IMG/VR virus record: IMGVR_UViG_3300045988_164457
Coordinates: 32,001 to 96,000 of that record
Origin: a virus
Length of the DNA: 64,000 bases
Direction: 5' to 3' (one strand)
A program made the position numbers and the translations under genes. The notes below the pieces were generated by a model that was given only the letters and a program-made list of their open reading frames with translations, was not told the DNA's origin and ran no database searches. Each line of letters begins with the position of its first letter. The first letter of the stretch is position 1. Shown piece by piece: positions 1,891 to 61,096 of this stretch.

Positions 1891-2319
1891 TTAAAGTGAA
1901 TAAGTTCTTATTGCAGAAACAATACTATCCGTGTACCAATTTACAGTTGTAGTTGCAACGGAGCTAACTTCTGTTGGCATATTTACATTTCCACGAGGTT
2001 TGATTGCAATGATAGGTTTTCCCATTGCTACTGCGCAATCTAATTCATACTGCATCCATTCACGATTATTATAGTACATTCCCGATATAACTAAAACACA
2101 ATTTACAGGTCTGATTTTTCTTAAAATAGCATCTTTAATTTGTGTTTTATTGGTAACGGAAGTACCATCTAAATTTATAAGAGGATTGTCTTTTGGAGCT
2201 GAATAATTATAATACTTAAAATTAGGAGCTTCTTCCAATAAATCATTTAAGTGAATGTAATCATCGCCGTATTTCCAAGCATGACTAATAAATAAATGGT
2301 ATGGCTTTAACTCTGGCAT
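1891..2319 (-). CDS. TIR-like domain protein (DUF1863/MTH538-type)
   Basis: Motifs 'YHLFISHAWKYGDDY', 'VLVISGMYYNNREWMQYELDCA' and 'GKPIIAIKP' are present. The start was set at the ATG of 'MPELKPY' (2319); the longer ORF to 2457 has a low-complexity, implausible N-terminus. Confidence 0.7.
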   Translation of the reverse strand: MPELKPYHLFISHAWKYGDDYIHLNDLLEEAPNFKYYNYSAPKDNPLINLDGTSVTNKTQIKDAILRKIRPVNCVLVISGMYYNNREWMQYELDCAVAMGKPIIAIKPRGNVNMPTEVSSVATTTVNWYTDSIVSAIRTYSL

Positions 2320-2376
2320 ATAAATTACAACCTTTCTAAAATAAAAATTTAAACAATTCCATAAGGAGGAATTATT

Positions 2377-2577
2377 TTGAATACTAATGTAAAAAAATAT
2401 CGTAAGAAGCCTGTTGTAATTGAGGCATATCAAACTGACAAGGAAATTGTTATTCACACATTAGAGGGCGATATGATAGCATCTGTTGGGGATTATATTA
2501 TCACGGGTGTGAATGGAGAACAATACCCTTGCAAACCTGATATCTTTGAAAAGACTTACGAATCTGTAGAAGATTGA
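2377..2577 (+). CDS. Small phage protein, PGDYG-like
   Basis: TTG start lies 6 nt after AAGGAGGA. The motif '[26 protein letters not shown]' resembles small PGDYG-domain phage proteins. The gene sits between the TIR and SLATT genes on the opposite strand. Confidence 0.55.
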
Positions 2578-3053
2578 CTTACTTTGCTTTGCCATGTTGA
2601 AAATTCTTTAGTAAAATACTGCTCACAATTACTAACTAAGGTATCAAATGCCACGTCTGGGTTGTTAGAATTGTAGGGCGGTATTTTATTTATAAATTTT
2701 GAAGCTTCACTTTTCAGCATCTCGCAATTCATGCGATATTGAACCCATAAGTCTTTAAAGGTGTTTATATTTATTATGTAGGTGATTACCGAGACGGCTG
2801 AACCAGCAATGGCAATTAATATATTAACTAATGGTTTTTCTTCAAAAAGTGTTAATATTGGAATTGAAGAAGATATTATAACAGATATGACAGATAAAAC
2901 TTTGTAGTATTTTTGATTATGTTTTGCTTTTTTATCATACCATTGTATTTGGTCAAGCAATCTGTTCTTTAAATATCTTTGTTGTTTTTCAGTGTATTCA
3001 CTGTAATCTATCGGAAGGTCTATTATGTAGTTTTCATTTGATTTTTTACACAT
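2556..3053 (-). CDS. SLATT / DUF4231-like two-TM effector protein
   Basis: '[17 protein letters not shown]' is followed by two hydrophobic helices ([19 protein letters not shown] and [20 protein letters not shown]) and then '[18 protein letters not shown]'. The start was set at the 2nd ATG (3053), which follows a TGGAG RBS. Confidence 0.7.
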
Positions 3054-3098
3054 TTTATGCTCCATTTTTCACTGTAACGAGTTGTATTGTATAAGTAT

Positions 3099-31882: not shown

Positions 31883-32641
31883 TTATGTATTCTCAATTCT
31901 CTTTTTAGCTATCTCAAAATATGTATCATCAAGTTCTATACCAATAAACTTACGATTAAGGTTCTTACAAGCCACACCTGTGCTACCACTACCCATACAA
32001 TTATCAAGTACAACTTCACCTTCAAGTGTATAGGTCTTAATGAGATATTCAAGCAACTCAACAGGTTTTTGAGTTGGATGTATTTGATTTTGTCTTCTCC
32101 ATTTCTGTTGAAAATAAATTACTGTTTCAGGATATCGTTCTCCTTTATTAAAGGTTTCACTATCACTAACTACACCCAGTTTATGATTATTTGGTTTACT
32201 ACCATCATTAGCTTTTCTATGACGATAATATGGTGTACCTTCAATCATAATAGGATAATATGCTGTTTTTTTGCCGTTTTTAGAAAAAACAGAAATTGTT
32301 TCGTGCTTCTGTTGCGGTCTATATTTACTTGTAAAAGCACTTCCACATTTAGATTTATGCCATATCCAATCATATTTCCAACCTTTAAGATTACTCAGTC
32401 TTAACTTGCTACTAAACGGCTCATTCCCGAATAAACAGATAGCTCTATTGTCTTTAATAATACGATTATACTGTTCCCACAAAAGCTCAAAAGGAATTAC
32501 AGTATCCCACTTACAAGCAGTAGTACCATAAGGCAAGTCACACAATATCATATCTATCGACTTATCAGGTATATCTTTCATAAGTTCAAGACAATCGCCA
32601 CACCAAAGTTCTATATCATTCAAATTAACACTTCCTTTCAA
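31883..32641 (-). CDS. DNA methyltransferase (N6_N4_Mtase family, beta-class order)
   Basis: Motif IV 'ILCDLPYG' is N-terminal. SAM motif 'VVLDNCMGSGSTGVA' is C-terminal. Confidence 0.85.
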   Translation of the reverse strand: MKGSVNLNDIELWCGDCLELMKDIPDKSIDMILCDLPYGTTACKWDTVIPFELLWEQYNRIIKDNRAICLFGNEPFSSKLRLSNLKGWKYDWIWHKSKCGSAFTSKYRPQQKHETISVFSKNGKKTAYYPIMIEGTPYYRHRKANDGSKPNNHKLGVVSDSETFNKGERYPETVIYFQQKWRRQNQIHPTQKPVELLEYLIKTYTLEGEVVLDNCMGSGSTGVACKNLNRKFIGIELDDTYFEIAKKRIENT

Positions 32642-33374: not shown

Positions 33375-33551
33375 TTAAATTTCGTTAACCACTTCAAATT
33401 GAACTGAGCCATCAACATAATCATCTGCTTCAAGAACAATATCACTATCGTAATACTTATCCTTTACCTTTTGAATTGCCTCCTCTGAAGTTTCAGCTTC
33501 AATTTCAAGTCTACTTGTAAGTAACTCTGATACCTGTATTATATATTTCAT
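33375..33551 (-). CDS. DpnD/PcfM-like small protein (58 aa, below the ORF-track cutoff)
   Basis: Hand-translated as MKYIIQVSELLTSRLEIEAETSEEAIQKVKDKYYDSDIVLEADDYVDGSVQFEVVNEI. Confidence 0.45.
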   Translation of the reverse strand: MKYIIQVSELLTSRLEIEAETSEEAIQKVKDKYYDSDIVLEADDYVDGSVQFEVVNEI

Positions 33552-34264: not shown

Positions 34265-34705
34265 TCACTTCACGCAGACCAGTATTTCAACATCGGTATC
34301 AGCAAAAACTTCTTCAATGATTACCTTTACCTTATCCCATTGCAGGCGGTCTAATCCACAACCGATTTTTGGCATTGCGAGTTTTACATTCTCATAACTC
34401 ATTAGTTCCTCATACAAAGATTTGGTGTTTTCAAGAGCCATTCTCATTGTTTTGTAAGTGGGCTTTTGCCAATACTTTTCCTTAGTAACAAGATTAAGTT
34501 CTGCTCTCCAACCTGTTGTATTAGATACTAAGCATTCCCCTACTTCTATATCTTGATAATCTTTTTGAAGTTGTGCTTTTATTCCTCGCTTTGTAAACTC
34601 CTTAGCTATTCCTGCACCCATTGCAAGATCAGCACTGATACAGTGAACAAGGATATGACCCTTTGGAACTGTAAATAAGTCTCGCTGTTCTTCTCTGATT
34701 ATCAT
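34265..34705 (-). CDS. Macro domain protein (ADP-ribose binding/hydrolase fold)
   Basis: 'LVHCISADLAMGAGIAKEF' and 'LAMPKIGCGLDRLQW' match macro-domain signature regions. Confidence 0.75.
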   Translation of the reverse strand: MIIREEQRDLFTVPKGHILVHCISADLAMGAGIAKEFTKRGIKAQLQKDYQDIEVGECLVSNTTGWRAELNLVTKEKYWQKPTYKTMRMALENTKSLYEELMSYENVKLAMPKIGCGLDRLQWDKVKVIIEEVFADTDVEILVCVK

Positions 34706-57098: not shown

Positions 57099-57362
57099 TT
57101 AAGTTCTTTCCCATTCATCATATGTAAACTTACCAACAACATAAGCAGTAGGTTCATCTATACCAAAAGCATTGAAGATACTCTTCATCTTTTCCTTATC
57201 TGTTACATCTACTGCAAAACTATCACACAGACAGGTCGCAAGTGTTTTGCCACGCTTTGTATTTGTCTTGACTAAATCCCCAGCTTTGAGCGTTTTGTCT
57301 TCAGGAACAAGGAATACATATTTTGCTCCACAGTTTTCGTGTTTTACTATTACAACGTTCAT
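57099..57362 (-). CDS. Hypothetical protein
   Basis: 87-aa ORF with a GAGAGGTGA RBS. Confidence 0.5.
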   Translation of the reverse strand: MNVVIVKHENCGAKYVFLVPEDKTLKAGDLVKTNTKRGKTLATCLCDSFAVDVTDKEKMKSIFNAFGIDEPTAYVVGKFTYDEWERT

Positions 57363-57632: not shown

Positions 57633-57717
57633 TGGTACTCCCAGACGGATTCCAACCGTCACACCTTTCGGTACTTGATTTTGAGTCAAGCGTGTCTTGC
57701 AATTTCACCATAGGAGC
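57633..57717 (-). tRNA. tRNA-Leu (anticodon CAA), type II with long variable arm, CCA encoded
   Basis: Hand-folded as GCTCCTA-TG-GTGAAATTGCAAGACAC-G-CTTGA-CTCAAAA-TCAAG-TACCGAAAGGTGT-GACGG-TTGGAAT-CCGTC-TGGGAGT-A-CCA. The D-arm is close to that of bacterial tRNA-Leu. Confidence 0.85.
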
Positions 57718-57876
57718 AGATGAGTGCCTGATTATCCTCACAGGCTTTTGGGCGGTTCATTCTAAAGTTTATCCTCATCCGCTAAAACCACAAAGTCGCT
57801 ATCCGTCTCGTGAACTACTCGCCTACTCTTGTTCTACAAACAACCCTAATGTTGCTGTTTTCTCCAATTTCAGATT

Positions 57877-57953
57877 TGGTCTCCCAAGTGGAACTCGAAT
57901 CCACACTGTCAGAATTTTAAGTTCTGTGTCTCTGCCGATTGGACTATTGGGAG
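57877..57953 (-). tRNA. tRNA with anticodon UAA (Leu codons UUA/UUG) but a short type-I variable arm
   Basis: Hand-folded as CTCCCAA-TA-GTCCAATCGGCAGAGAC-A-CAGAA-CTTAAAA-TTCTG-ACAGT-GTGGA-TTCGAGT-TCCAC-TTGGGAG-A-CCA. All stems are perfect. Confidence 0.7.
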
Positions 57954-58163
57954 ATATTTAAACCACTTAGCAGGTTTTTCATCCGCTCAAAGTCGCTATT
58001 TGTTAATATGAAACCTCATATTCGATTTTTAGTGCCAACAGAATACGACTTGTTATTACTGTTCAGACACTTAATACATATTTAATGAAATATCAGCGCC
58101 AACTGATACGACAAAATATGTATTAGGTTGGAGACACCTTGACGGTATCAATCCTCGCACCAA

Positions 58164-58237
58164 TGGTACACCATATCGGTTCTGCCCCGATGTTTAACGA
58201 TTAAAAGTCGTTTGTTCTACTATTGAACTAATGGTGC
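58164..58237 (-). tRNA. tRNA-Lys (anticodon UUU) with non-canonical D- and T-loops
   Basis: Hand-folded as GCACCAT-TA-GTTC-AATAGTA-GAAC-A-AACGA-CTTTTAA-TCGTT-AAAC-ATCGG-GGCAGAA-CCGAT-ATGGTGT-A-CCA. The T-loop lacks TTC and the D-loop lacks GG. Confidence 0.6.
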
Positions 58238-58308
58238 TTATTCCTGACTTTTTATACGGAAGTCAGTGAAACCGTTTATGGAGGTTATACCAGAATGAAA
58301 CTAACATT

Positions 58309-58382
58309 TGGTTGGGACACTCTGATTTGAACAGAGGATCACGGAGTCAAATTCCGATGCCTTACCACTTGGCTATGCCCCA
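58309..58382 (-). tRNA. tRNA-Gln (anticodon UUG), CCA encoded
   Basis: TGGGGCATAGCCAAGTGGTAAGGCATCGGAATTTGACTCCGTGATCCTCTGTTCAAATCAGAGTGTCCCAACCA is closely similar in layout to bacterial tRNA-Gln. Confidence 0.85.
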
Positions 58383-58436
58383 ATATTTATTTTAAAGCCT
58401 AATTTTATCATTTACTTATCATTTGATTACATATAT

Positions 58437-58536: not shown

Positions 58537-59505
58537 TTAATCTTCTGCCTTCTCAATACTCTGTCTGAACTTATTGTATTCGCTCACCATACGATATGCT
58601 TTGGTCACTGAAGTATTGAATGTCCGAGCATATGTTTCTGCACTATTCATGTCTCCAGAAAAGACATAATCATTTTTTCTTTCATACTGATACATTTTAT
58701 TGAACATACCTGCTTTTTTAACATTGGGAGCTTCCAGTCGCACATCCTGTATAGATGCCCCCATTGCGTTCCACTTTAAATTTACGAAACTTGATTTCTT
58801 TTCGGAATTAAATAAATTATCATATGTCCAATTCTTTGTTTTTCTTTTATACTGTCTTTTTACGCTATTTTGCTCATCTGCCTGCAATTCTAATATTTCC
58901 GAATACAGGTCATCAATAAACTGAATTTCCTCATCTGAAAGTTCAATAGACTTTCCATTGACGGTCAGCTGTTTGGTACTGATTATATTCCTTGCATCAG
59001 ACAATGTAATAGAAATCATATCATCTGTTGTAAGTTGCTCCCAAAGAAATACATTAAATACATTGAATTTCTTTTGTCGCACAACTAAACTTTTATACAT
59101 TTTTTCGGATAATTCAGATTCTTGCAGAATAAGATACTCCTCTTCTGCTTGAGTTAACGCCTGTTTCAATTCTGAAAAAGTAGCAAAGTATTCATCTTTA
59201 CCGCTTTCGGTTTTTATATTGGATACTATACTTTTAAGTCTATTGACTTCGTAAAAACTATCCTTTATGGATAAATCATAAGTCTTATTTACCCATCTAT
59301 AATAATTACACAGAACGCCGTATAAAGCGTTTAAGGTAGTAATTTTCTTCTTGTCGGCTTCTATTACATCGGCGATTTCCTCAGCTGACATATCAAATAT
59401 ATTTTTATCTACTTTATTCAAAGCAGATATTCTTAGTGCGTAATTACCAAAACTGGGATTCTTTTCAATAATATGCTGACAATATTCTTCAAAGTATGGT
59501 ACCAT
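58537..59505 (-). CDS. Hypothetical protein (N-terminus faintly like an integrase SAM-like core-binding domain)
   Basis: 322-aa ORF with its own promoter. No catalytic motif was recognised. Confidence 0.5.
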   Translation of the reverse strand: MVPYFEEYCQHIIEKNPSFGNYALRISALNKVDKNIFDMSAEEIADVIEADKKKITTLNALYGVLCNYYRWVNKTYDLSIKDSFYEVNRLKSIVSNIKTESGKDEYFATFSELKQALTQAEEEYLILQESELSEKMYKSLVVRQKKFNVFNVFLWEQLTTDDMISITLSDARNIISTKQLTVNGKSIELSDEEIQFIDDLYSEILELQADEQNSVKRQYKRKTKNWTYDNLFNSEKKSSFVNLKWNAMGASIQDVRLEAPNVKKAGMFNKMYQYERKNDYVFSGDMNSAETYARTFNTSVTKAYRMVSEYNKFRQSIEKAED

Positions 59506-59535
59506 ATAATCGTCCTTTCTATATTCACTAAATCA

Positions 59536-59564
59536 ATTTTATCATCTTCTTTCTGATTTGTCAA
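59536..59564 (-). promoter_or_regulatory. Sigma-A type promoter
   Basis: On the minus strand: TTGACA, 17 nt, TAAAAT, between the MazF stop and the next gene's RBS (GAAAGGA). Confidence 0.5.
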
Positions 59565-59570
59565 GATAAA

Positions 59571-59996
59571 TTATACAGAATACGCAGAATTATTTTCCAG
59601 ACCAAAGCTTGCAGCGATGGCTCTATCGATACAAGTCATCATTCTTTCCCCAAGCTTTCCTGCCCAGCTCAGAACTCGGCTCTTATCAATAGTTCTTATC
59701 TGCTCCGTCATTACAGTAGTAGGCTTTGTTAATCCTGTCTCTACAGATGGGTTTATACTTACGTGTGTTACCATTGGCTTTTTCTCCTTACTGGTCATGA
59801 TAGCCACTATAAGGCATGGTGAGTGTTTATTTCCTACTTCATTTTGTATTATTACGGCTGGACGGATATCACCTTGTTCTGAGCCGACCGTATCTCCAAA
59901 ATCAACCCAGACAATATCGCCACGGTGATATTCCATCACAGTTGAATGATACTTATTATCATAATGTCTAAAATTAGTTGAGCTATTAGCAATCAT
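59571..59996 (-). CDS. mazF: MazF/PemK-family endoribonuclease toxin
   Basis: 'RGDIVWVDFGDTVGSEQGDIRPAVIIQNEVGNKHSPCLIVAIMTS...TEQIRTIDKSRV' aligns along its length with B. subtilis EndoA/MazF. It carries a 20-aa N-terminal extension if the ATG at 59996 (after an AAAGGAG RBS) is used. Confidence 0.85.
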   Translation of the reverse strand: MIANSSTNFRHYDNKYHSTVMEYHRGDIVWVDFGDTVGSEQGDIRPAVIIQNEVGNKHSPCLIVAIMTSKEKKPMVTHVSINPSVETGLTKPTTVMTEQIRTIDKSRVLSWAGKLGERMMTCIDRAIAASFGLENNSAYSV

Positions 59997-60101
59997 TTTT
60001 TATTTTCTCCTTTCATTCAGATTAGCAGTAATTCCGTTGTTCCTCGTTTTATTATCTATATTTTATCATTTACATATTTTTATTTATACTATATTTTGTG
60101 T

Positions 60102-60521
60102 CTAAATTGCAAATTCTATCATTTCAGAGAGATTGTTAAAAAGCAATATTCCGTCTTCTCTGACTTGACAATAATCTGTTCCTGTTAATTCATCGGATCT
60201 TATCTCCCCTTCCAGTTCGTATTTATCTTTGACAATATTTCTTAAAATTGGCTTGAACCACTGTGTAAAGGCTATTCCAAGGATATTATCATATGTATCT
60301 TCTATAATATATACTATATTATTACCTTTCATCAATTCAAATTCCACCTTCTCTTTGTGAGGTGTGATATTGAGATGAGTTTCTTCGCTGGTGTCGGTAT
60401 CGATATTTTTTATATTTGTATAAATGCGTTTGACTTTTTTACCATCTATAAATGTGAGAAATTCAATTTTTCCGTTTTTAAAATATTGGGACAACTGATT
60501 TTTTATGTCTTCTGTATTCAT
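60102..60521 (-). CDS. Hypothetical protein
   Basis: The listed ORF runs to 60539; the ATG at 60521 follows an AAAGGA RBS. No motif was recognised. Confidence 0.5.
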   Translation of the reverse strand: MNTEDIKNQLSQYFKNGKIEFLTFIDGKKVKRIYTNIKNIDTDTSEETHLNITPHKEKVEFELMKGNNIVYIIEDTYDNILGIAFTQWFKPILRNIVKDKYELEGEIRSDELTGTDYCQVREDGILLFNNLSEMIEFAI

Positions 60522-60679
60522 TTTTATCGATCCTTTCATATCATTTACAAAACTTTCGCTTAAATTGCCACACTATTCCCTTATATACGGACTTGCCATA
60601 AGGGAACGAGAAAACATTCCCATTGGCATTTATCCATATTTGATGGCTTCCGTTACCGTTTCTGAAAAATGTAAAACCA

Positions 60680-61096
60680 TTATCCGTTAGCATTGCGAGA
60701 AACTTTCTGATATCCATTCTGCATTCCTCTCAACATATTTTTAGCTTTATTTGTCGCAAGATTGTGTTCATACTCCTTTAATGCAATAAATAACTCCACT
60801 TCATCTCCATATGAGTCAACATTGCAAACATAACATTCGACAGGATATGGATTTTCATCATAAATCTTATCGAGTGCTGCTTTCATTTCCACATCATCAA
60901 CTATATAATATTTACCGCCACGATGACATACAATGAAGGGCTTTAATTTTATCTTATCAAAATCACGAACATATTGTTCCACCCAATATTTACATGGGTT
61001 TTGATGATAACCGCCATTTTCCATAGTCATTATAAAAAGTTCATTTGACATTAAGGTACGTTTGGTAAAATCATAAGGAAGATTGTATATTTTCAT
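60680..61096 (-). CDS. Hypothetical protein, possible ParB/Srx-fold
   Basis: 'PFIVCHRGGKYYIVDDVEMKAALDKI' resembles the ParB N-terminal 'v..g.y.viDG.hR..A' segment, but the GxxR residues are absent. Confidence 0.35.
   Translation of the reverse strand: MKIYNLPYDFTKRTLMSNELFIMTMENGGYHQNPCKYWVEQYVRDFDKIKLKPFIVCHRGGKYYIVDDVEMKAALDKIYDENPYPVECYVCNVDSYGDEVELFIALKEYEHNLATNKAKNMLRGMQNGYQKVSRNANG

Follow-up and report, generated by a model that had tools for sequence, protein, structure and literature searches.

A phage-borne mazF gene without a recognisable mazE lies in a conserved block with a candidate non-canonical antitoxin gene

A mazF gene and its neighbours in a large phage

We have analysed a gene for a predicted MazF/PemK-type toxin, mazF, in a 64,000-nucleotide stretch of viral DNA (IMG/VR virus record IMGVR_UViG_3300045988_164457, positions 32,001 to 96,000 of that record; hereafter the window, to which all coordinates refer). 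The window is that of a large Firmicute-type phage, with a GC content of 33.6% and genes for a PolC/DnaE-like DNA polymerase, helicases, a ligase, an integrase, ParB-like proteins and tRNAs. The polymerase shares 37–44% identity with the enzymes of Geobacillus E3, of the Bacillus vB_BanS phages and of an unclassified phage record from human faeces, and Clostridium and Lactococcus phages also occur among the 71 records that match it; no near-identical DNA was found in INPHARED. The mazF gene (59571–59996, minus strand) sits among integrase, ParB-like and lysogeny genes, in a region where all the genes are on the minus strand and follow each other in the order hicA, p139, mazF and p322, with 105 bp between p139 and mazF and 65 bp between mazF and p322.

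The product of mazF is predicted to be a 141-amino acid endoribonuclease toxin of the EndoA type. A first-pass annotation, made from the sequence alone, had described it as matching MazF/EndoA along essentially its whole length, and our searches agree: the open reading frame (ORF) covers positions 2–109 of the 109 in the Pfam PemK_toxin profile (PF02452; E = 5.6e-30, 104.2 bits against a cut-off of 23.1 bits), residues 24–133 match Bacillus and Staphylococcus EndoA/MazF proteins of known structure in the PDB (E ~4e-23), and there is a match to PHROG 1936, ‘MazF-like growth inhibitor’. Residues R45 and T68, the equivalents of the catalytic R25 and T48 of B. subtilis EndoA, are invariant among 21 aligned sequences comprising B. 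subtilis EndoA and relatives. The GSEQ and EQ-RTIDK motifs are likewise invariant when the phage protein is aligned with those of B. subtilis (EndoA) and 19 relatives. Pairwise ratios of non-synonymous to synonymous substitution rates (dN/dS) of 0.05–0.17 indicate purifying selection; these and all other dN/dS values given here are approximate because dS is near saturation. With its full PemK domain, invariant catalytic arginine and threonine and low dN/dS, MazF looks competent as a toxin, and the intact catalytic residues together with the strong purifying selection argue for a protein that is predicted to be active.

MazF also carries a variable N-terminal extension of about 20 amino acids, which the first-pass annotation had proposed on the condition that the ATG at 59996 is used. 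That start is preceded by a GAAAGGAGA ribosome-binding site (around 60014–60006) that is invariant in an alignment of seven lineages, which argues that the extension is translated. Its sequence and length differ between relatives, and in P0035/L021 it is almost absent; given this poor conservation, a role as an intramolecular inhibitor is unlikely. The homologues of MazF form a tight clade of about 35 clusters (62–98% identity), mostly of 126–142 amino acids, with one 111-amino acid entry that appears to be truncated. The contigs that encode them are from human-gut metagenomes and reach 136 kb in length, and relatives beyond the clade are at most 52% identical. As judged by its sequence, the toxin itself is unremarkable within the MazF/PemK family.

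No MazE could be recognised beside it. Pfam searches for MazE, AbrB, ribbon-helix-helix (RHH), PemI or HicB domains found none in the neighbours of mazF or in another 46 of the window's small ORFs (up to 200 amino acids, joined into nine test strings; matches to ‘Serglycin’ are an artefact of the inserted GS linkers). The MazE-less status assigned to the gene at first pass therefore stands, both for the neighbours and for the small ORFs tested; what had been overlooked there were a second toxin gene, hicA, and a promoter element in front of mazF, both described below.

The gene upstream of mazF, p139 (60102–60521, minus strand), encodes a 139-amino acid protein without annotation, which is our candidate for a non-canonical antitoxin. 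We place its start at the ATG at 60521, which has an AAAGGA ribosome-binding site and at which shorter homologues begin with the same MN(T/I)E motif. The earlier impression that this protein has no AbrB- or RHH-like features can be extended: p139 has no match in Pfam, NCBIfam, PADLOC, PHROGs or PDB sequences, profile search included, and comparison of its model with the PDB and BFVD by Foldseek yielded no E value under 0.007, and the TM-scores stayed below 0.4. Alignment of the p139 profile with B. subtilis EndoAI/MazE gave an hhalign probability of 0.07% (the EndoAI sequence being verified as 4ME7_E). On these null family, PDB-profile, hhalign and Foldseek results we set aside the idea that p139 is a remote MazE or HicB.

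The p139 protein falls into two parts. In the AF2 model, residues 1–100 form a confident alpha-beta5-alpha domain (pLDDT ~88), and residues 101–139 have a pLDDT of ~48. Invariant residues are concentrated towards the C-terminus, with 27 of the 63 positions in 77–139 invariant compared with 9 of 76 in 1–76. The protein is acidic (isoelectric point, pI, 4.8), and its entire net negative charge resides in 101–139 (−8.2). It is under purifying selection (pairwise dN/dS 0.23–0.34). A small acidic protein with a conserved, probably disordered C-terminus that evolves faster than the toxin would be typical of established antitoxins, and in these respects the tail of p139 appears to resemble them. The family is small: just 9 matches were obtained when 1.84 billion representative proteins were searched by profile, three of them distant (24–35% identity to p139 over the aligned part). 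Patterns derived from p139 found nothing in 185,579 GTDB species genomes, there were no homologues in the phage records searched and no distant homologues in JGI metagenome contigs, and a second scan of IMG/VR returned the same loci only. In every locus that extends far enough, the p139-family gene adjoins a MazF gene.

The intergenic region between p139 and mazF (59997–60101, minus strand; 105 bp) contains no ORF, small ones included, as the first-pass annotation had it; its translations have stops in all three minus-strand frames. In addition to the ribosome-binding site of mazF, it holds an extended −10 promoter element, TGATAAAAT (60068–60060, minus strand), which is conserved in the seven-lineage alignment. 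This element is enriched in the window (14 sites compared with 3.1 expected) and also occurs upstream of p322 and of a tRNA cluster. We considered an RNA antitoxin of type III in the gap, a ToxIN-like tandem-repeat RNA upstream of the toxin, and discarded it: there is no convincing tandem repeat, just two weak overlapping AT-rich rows (score 43–51, 70–71% matches) that are not conserved in relatives, and the gap has no conserved RNA structure.

Downstream of mazF, p322 (58537–59505, minus strand) encodes a mostly helical 322-amino acid protein without annotation, the conserved third member of the block. It is mildly acidic (pI 5.4) and under purifying selection (pairwise dN/dS ~0.15–0.19); its predicted structure is of low confidence, and Pfam, profile and structure searches gave no significant family or fold match. 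Its promoter (59564–59536, minus strand), recognised already at first pass, has the form TTGACA-17-TAAAAT with a TG extension and agrees with the consensus at 11 of 12 positions; both hexamers and the TG are invariant in the seven lineages. The protein is possibly a regulator. A degenerate tyrosine recombinase or regulator was looked for, and with a faint match to the recombinase-type core-binding domain MrpR_N_CB (E 0.029–0.74), an hhalign probability of 0.2% against the integrase of the window and no fold match, we leave this as a weak lead. The tRNA cluster (57633–58382, minus strand) lies just downstream of p322, with the TGATAAAAT element upstream of it at 58402–58410. Rfam identifies four tRNAs in the cluster and ARAGORN three (Leu-CAA, Leu-TAA and Gln-TTG), missing the one at 58167–58237.

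On the other side of p139 lies hicA (60541–60717, minus strand), whose 58-amino acid basic product (pI 10.2) is predicted to be an mRNA interferase of the HicA family. The ORF passes the Pfam HicA_toxin cut-off marginally (27.1 bits, cut-off 27) and matches PHROG 353 ‘toxin’ (4.7e-8); a PDB sequence search gave no match. The product has the conserved G-S-H motif, which aligns with that of a HicA sequence. The gene is under purifying selection (pairwise dN/dS 0.02–0.08), and its stop is separated from the p139 ATG at 60521 by 20 nt. Public gene calls overlooked hicA in all of the 24 close loci described below; in L001–L010 and in P0091, P0096, P0100, P0101, P0106 and P0108 it is missing from the annotations although the ORF is intact. 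In its place, either the p139 ORF has been lengthened by about 34 residues upstream in another frame or a spurious 51-amino acid ORF has been called. The start of hicA is overlapped by 38 nt by a 138-amino acid ORF (60680–61096, minus strand), which is present in only some relatives (e.g. L004–L007 and L012–L014) and is weakly similar (26–30%) to a DUF6551/ParB-like gene stretch of related loci. This patchy presence and weak similarity suggest that it may be a variable insertion beside the toxin block.

Conservation of the block in close and distant relatives

Searches by tblastn with hicA, p139, mazF and p322 of 24 fetched loci from close relatives showed that all 24 have p139, mazF and p322 in unchanged order, each of them intact. 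The hicA gene is intact in 22; it is cut by the contig start in L003 and lies beyond the stretch examined for L011. Identities range over 83–100% for hicA, 51–98% for p139, 59–99% for mazF and 42–98% for p322, and where MazF is 59–80% identical p322 is at 42–47%. All four genes are under purifying selection by pairwise dN/dS.

The more distant loci have no hicA (L037, L038 and L039) and come in two gene orders. In L037 an integrase gene is followed by a gene for 171 amino acids, a p139-like gene, a gap of 110 bp, MazF (61%) and a p322-like gene (20%, E 1e-6), and in L039 an integrase gene is followed by a gene for 153 amino acids, a p139-like gene, MazF (69%) and a p322-like gene (36%). In L038, L035 and L036 MazF (57%) comes first, followed by a p139-like gene, a p139-like paralogue and a p322-like gene (24%, E 1e-19). 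In L038 the first p139-like gene lies 20–35 nt from mazF, with one TTGACT-17-TATAAT promoter ahead of both, and is overlapped by the second; the p322-like gene has a consensus promoter of its own upstream, again TTGACT-17-TATAAT. L038 is also the sole contig of these three that reaches upstream, where its neighbours are S24 repressors and Bro/ANT genes, not an integrase (L036, L040 and partly L037 are cut by the contig end). Across the distant loci MazF is 57–61% identical, compared with 24–35% for p139 over the aligned part and 20–24% for p322, so that the partners are the faster evolving. The window and L038 also share an 87-amino acid protein, p87 (57099–57362, minus strand, in the window; 8462–8719 in L038), which is 86% identical despite the 57% and 24% identities of the L038 MazF and p322; its conservation between the two is unusually strong.

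Thus, wherever a locus spans all three genes, members of the MazF, p139 and p322 families lie side by side, in either gene order, and p322 homologues follow the MazF/p139 genes in all loci, the distant ones included. Since this linkage persists in distant loci without hicA, we take these three genes to be the conserved core and hicA to be an accessory of one sub-lineage. The first-pass annotation had called mazF an orphan and the downstream 322-amino acid gene unrelated to it. Neither description fits genes that stay linked in this way, with or without hicA; what does hold for p322 is that it has a separate promoter.

A candidate antitoxin and the alternatives

From this combination of gene content, linkage and selection, and from the absence of known antitoxin domains, we infer that MazF could be the toxin of a new phage-borne module, with p139 as a non-MazE proteic antitoxin and p322 as a conserved third component, a reading to which we give about an even chance of being right. 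If correct, p139 would act in the manner of a type II antitoxin: its folded N-terminal domain would provide stability or oligomerisation, and its acidic, conserved C-terminal tail would fold onto MazF, fill the RNA-binding groove and silence the RNase. The third component, p322, would be made from its own strong promoter and might serve as a regulator or a trigger sensor. In the lineage of the window, a HicA toxin gene would have been added directly upstream of p139, and since hicA occupies the toxin-first position of a classical hicAB operon, p139 may neutralise HicA too. For a module placed among integration, partition and lysogeny genes, a role in prophage or episome addiction or in abortive-infection defence is plausible, and would be expected rather than host shut-off. 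Three options had been raised at first pass, namely a host shut-off weapon, a non-canonical antitoxin encoded nearby in the 139- or the 322-amino acid protein, and a MazE supplied by the host. It is the second that we favour, and the evidence points to p139 more than to p322. A more elaborate proposal is that p139 is a new antitoxin fold which uses its acidic tail to neutralise two unrelated RNase toxins, those encoded 5' (HicA) and 3' (MazF) of it, with p322 as sensor or regulator, in a cassette of two toxins, one antitoxin and one regulator dedicated to addiction or abortive infection; in this full form we think it unlikely.

Several observations weigh against p139 as the antitoxin of MazF. 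In the window lineage mazF lies 105 bp from p139 with its own conserved promoter and a strong ribosome-binding site, so that it could be made without p139, unlike the tight coupling of classical toxin–antitoxin genes. No DNA-binding domain is present in p139, and sequence, profile and fold searches revealed no antitoxin that resembles it. The gut phages that carry the loci are all related and belong to one broad group, and part of the linkage may therefore be inherited synteny, a point reinforced by the presence of p87 in L038. Finally, p322 is as strongly co-conserved as p139 and could be the true antitoxin. We consider the alternatives in turn.

First, p139 might be an antitoxin of HicA only, that is a functional analogue of HicB, with MazF a solitary RNase under its own promoter that the phage controls and uses to shut off host mRNA or to turn over its own transcripts, for which T4 RegB offers a comparison. 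The 20-nt spacing of hicA and p139 in classical toxin-first order is what such a pair would look like, and the conserved extended −10 promoter and invariant ribosome-binding site of mazF would suit a solitary gene. Other phages have MazF genes without an annotated antitoxin, such as that of Psychrobacillus phage Perkons, and PHROG 1936 groups such genes under host takeover. However, three lineages without hicA (L037, L038 and L039) still have a p139-family gene beside MazF, and in L038 mazF and a p139-like gene are predicted to form one operon. We therefore regard this explanation as improbable.

The shut-off role also fails to gain support from the phage transcripts themselves. The first-pass annotation had suggested that the phage spares its own mRNAs by depletion of the target motif, and had proposed an observed-to-expected count. 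UACAU, the motif cut by the closest characterised MazFs, has an observed/expected ratio of 1.1–1.27 on phage sense strands, and is if anything enriched. None of the NACAN pentamers is depleted, no ACA-containing k-mer shows strand-specific depletion, and an unbiased scan of 4- to 6-mers returned mainly strand-symmetric avoidance of palindromes. On these UACAU, NACAN and k-mer counts we set aside an avoidance of UACAU or other ACA-type motifs in phage mRNAs; the shut-off weapon as such is not thereby refuted, since this MazF may cut at another motif. The palindromes form a separate pattern that extends over the whole window and both strands equally, with 49 GATC (194 expected), 51 CATG (167), no CTAG (79), no GGCC (48.5), 15 CCGG (57) and no GAATTC (20), and this depletion looks like the avoidance of restriction sites.

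Second, the linkage might be no more than synteny inherited within one phage lineage, with MazF kept harmless by a host MazE, by an unrecognised small protein or RNA, by low expression or by weak activity. The loci do all come from related gut phages that share integrase and p87 homologues as well. Moreover, the nearest MazFs outside the clade (P0052, P0054 and P0041) have no Pfam-recognisable MazE either, which suggests that such MazFs may be widely tolerated. Against mere synteny, the gene order of L038 is changed and its upstream flank replaced, yet the three families are still adjacent. Neutralisation from outside the block finds no counterpart in the window, where none of the tested ORFs has a MazE-like domain, and weak activity of MazF is at odds with its strong purifying selection and intact catalytic residues. 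We consider this account quite improbable.

Third, p322 might be the antitoxin or inhibitor of MazF, encoded downstream as in higBA- or mqsRA-type orders, with p139 in another role, for instance as an antitoxin of HicA, a chaperone or an adaptor. In favour of this, no locus, however distant or rearranged, lacks a p322-family gene after the MazF/p139 genes, and p322 is mildly acidic and evolves faster than MazF (42–47% against 59–80% identity). Against it, few antitoxins would be expected to reach 322 amino acids, p322 is uncoupled from mazF and in every case has a strong promoter of its own, two p139-like genes separate mazF from the p322-like gene in L038, and the low-confidence model of p322 has no tail of the toxin-binding kind. 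We hold this explanation to be decidedly unlikely.

Relation to known systems and significance

The closest known system is MazEF, or EndoA-EndoAI (YdcE-YdcD), of Bacillus and Staphylococcus. Over residues 24–133 the phage MazF shares about 47% identity with B. anthracis/B. subtilis EndoA, and it has the same catalytic arginine and threonine and the same GSEQ and EQIRTIDK motifs. The resemblance ends with the toxin: no RHH or AbrB MazE is present in the phage block, so that the defining feature of canonical mazEF is missing, and the neighbouring p139 is unrelated to EndoAI. The block is phage-carried, and a third gene is conserved. The spacing and co-transcription of canonical mazEF were not found in the window either, where mazF has its own promoter-like element and lies 105 bp from the upstream gene; the corresponding genes of L038 are 20–35 nt apart and have one promoter.

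Compared with HicAB, the order is the same, toxin first: a small basic HicA carrying G-S-H comes before an acidic protein of about 140 amino acids, the size of E. coli HicB, with 20 nt between the two genes. However, p139 has neither the HicB domain or fold nor an RHH or helix-turn-helix domain, and it persists where hicA is absent, always beside MazF. Since no HicB is present, the defining feature of hicAB is also missing.

A third comparison is with tripartite toxin–antitoxin systems, among them TAC, omega-epsilon-zeta and PaaR-PaaA-ParE. These resemble the block in having three co-conserved genes around one toxin, the third being separately controlled, and MazF, p139 and p322 are indeed co-conserved across divergent genomes. 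For p322, whose model is of low confidence, the searches gave no significant match that would mark it as a SecB-like chaperone or a repressor, and found no homology to these systems. Tripartite systems are mentioned in PMC9098466 and PMC13069673.

That phage proteins unrelated to MazE can act on an EndoA-type MazF is established by AimX and YosL of Bacillus phage phi3T, which bind and inactivate it (PMC10769878). AimX and YosL inhibit the MazF of the host, whereas here the phage would encode both MazF and a candidate inhibitor; the comparison is by description only. Solitary or orphan MazF genes are likewise known from comparative genomics (PMC2701414, PMC4803016). Such genes are similar to ours in that no MazE is recognisable beside MazF and differ in that here partners can be identified that are co-conserved, which suggests that the label ‘solitary’ is in this case probably an artefact of annotation. 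Toxins that pair with unrelated antitoxin families, solitary MazF and tripartite systems are already known concepts (PMC2701414, PMC4803016, PMC9098466).

The nearest MazFs outside the clade, which are about 49–51% identical (L041–L043, P0052; L045–L046, P0054; L047–L048, P0041), have varied surroundings. One follows a YdcC-like gene for 186 amino acids in a bacterial chromosome, a second is overlapped by a downstream gene for 231 amino acids beside an integrase, and a third lies beside serine recombinases. It may be that gut Firmicutes and the mobile elements in them often have MazF genes without MazE. The cultured 137-kb Psychrobacillus phage Perkons (L044) has an annotated PemK/MazF gene (MT325768.1, 15265–15627; 43% identical) with no annotated antitoxin; upstream of it is an Spx-family regulator and downstream a 56-amino acid hypothetical protein.

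Other cargo of the window includes two adjacent genes for a ThsB-like TIR-domain protein (1891–2457, minus strand; PF08937, 4.7e-12) and a two-transmembrane effector protein of the DUF4231/SLATT_1 type (2556–3065, minus strand; 1.4e-17 and 1.2e-10), which look like a phage-carried TIR-SLATT defence-type pair. Among the early or replication genes are those for a Macro-domain protein (34265–34705, minus strand; 4.9e-5) and a DpnD/PcfM-like protein (33375–33551, minus strand; 4.7e-12).

As the basis of this work is comparative genomics, its present practical value is to provide a well-defined candidate for experiment. In the window, the cassette comprises two different predicted mRNA interferases around one candidate antitoxin, together with a conserved third gene, and this makes it a compact system in which cross-neutralisation and three-part control would be easy to test. 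With the TIR-SLATT pair in the same window, it is a further indication that the large temperate phages of the gut have toxin- and defence-type genes among their cargo. Should p139 indeed neutralise MazF, one of the most thoroughly studied toxins would gain a new family of antitoxins whose fold is unmatched, and many of the ‘orphan’ MazF calls in phage and metagenome data would then be gaps in annotation rather than free toxins.

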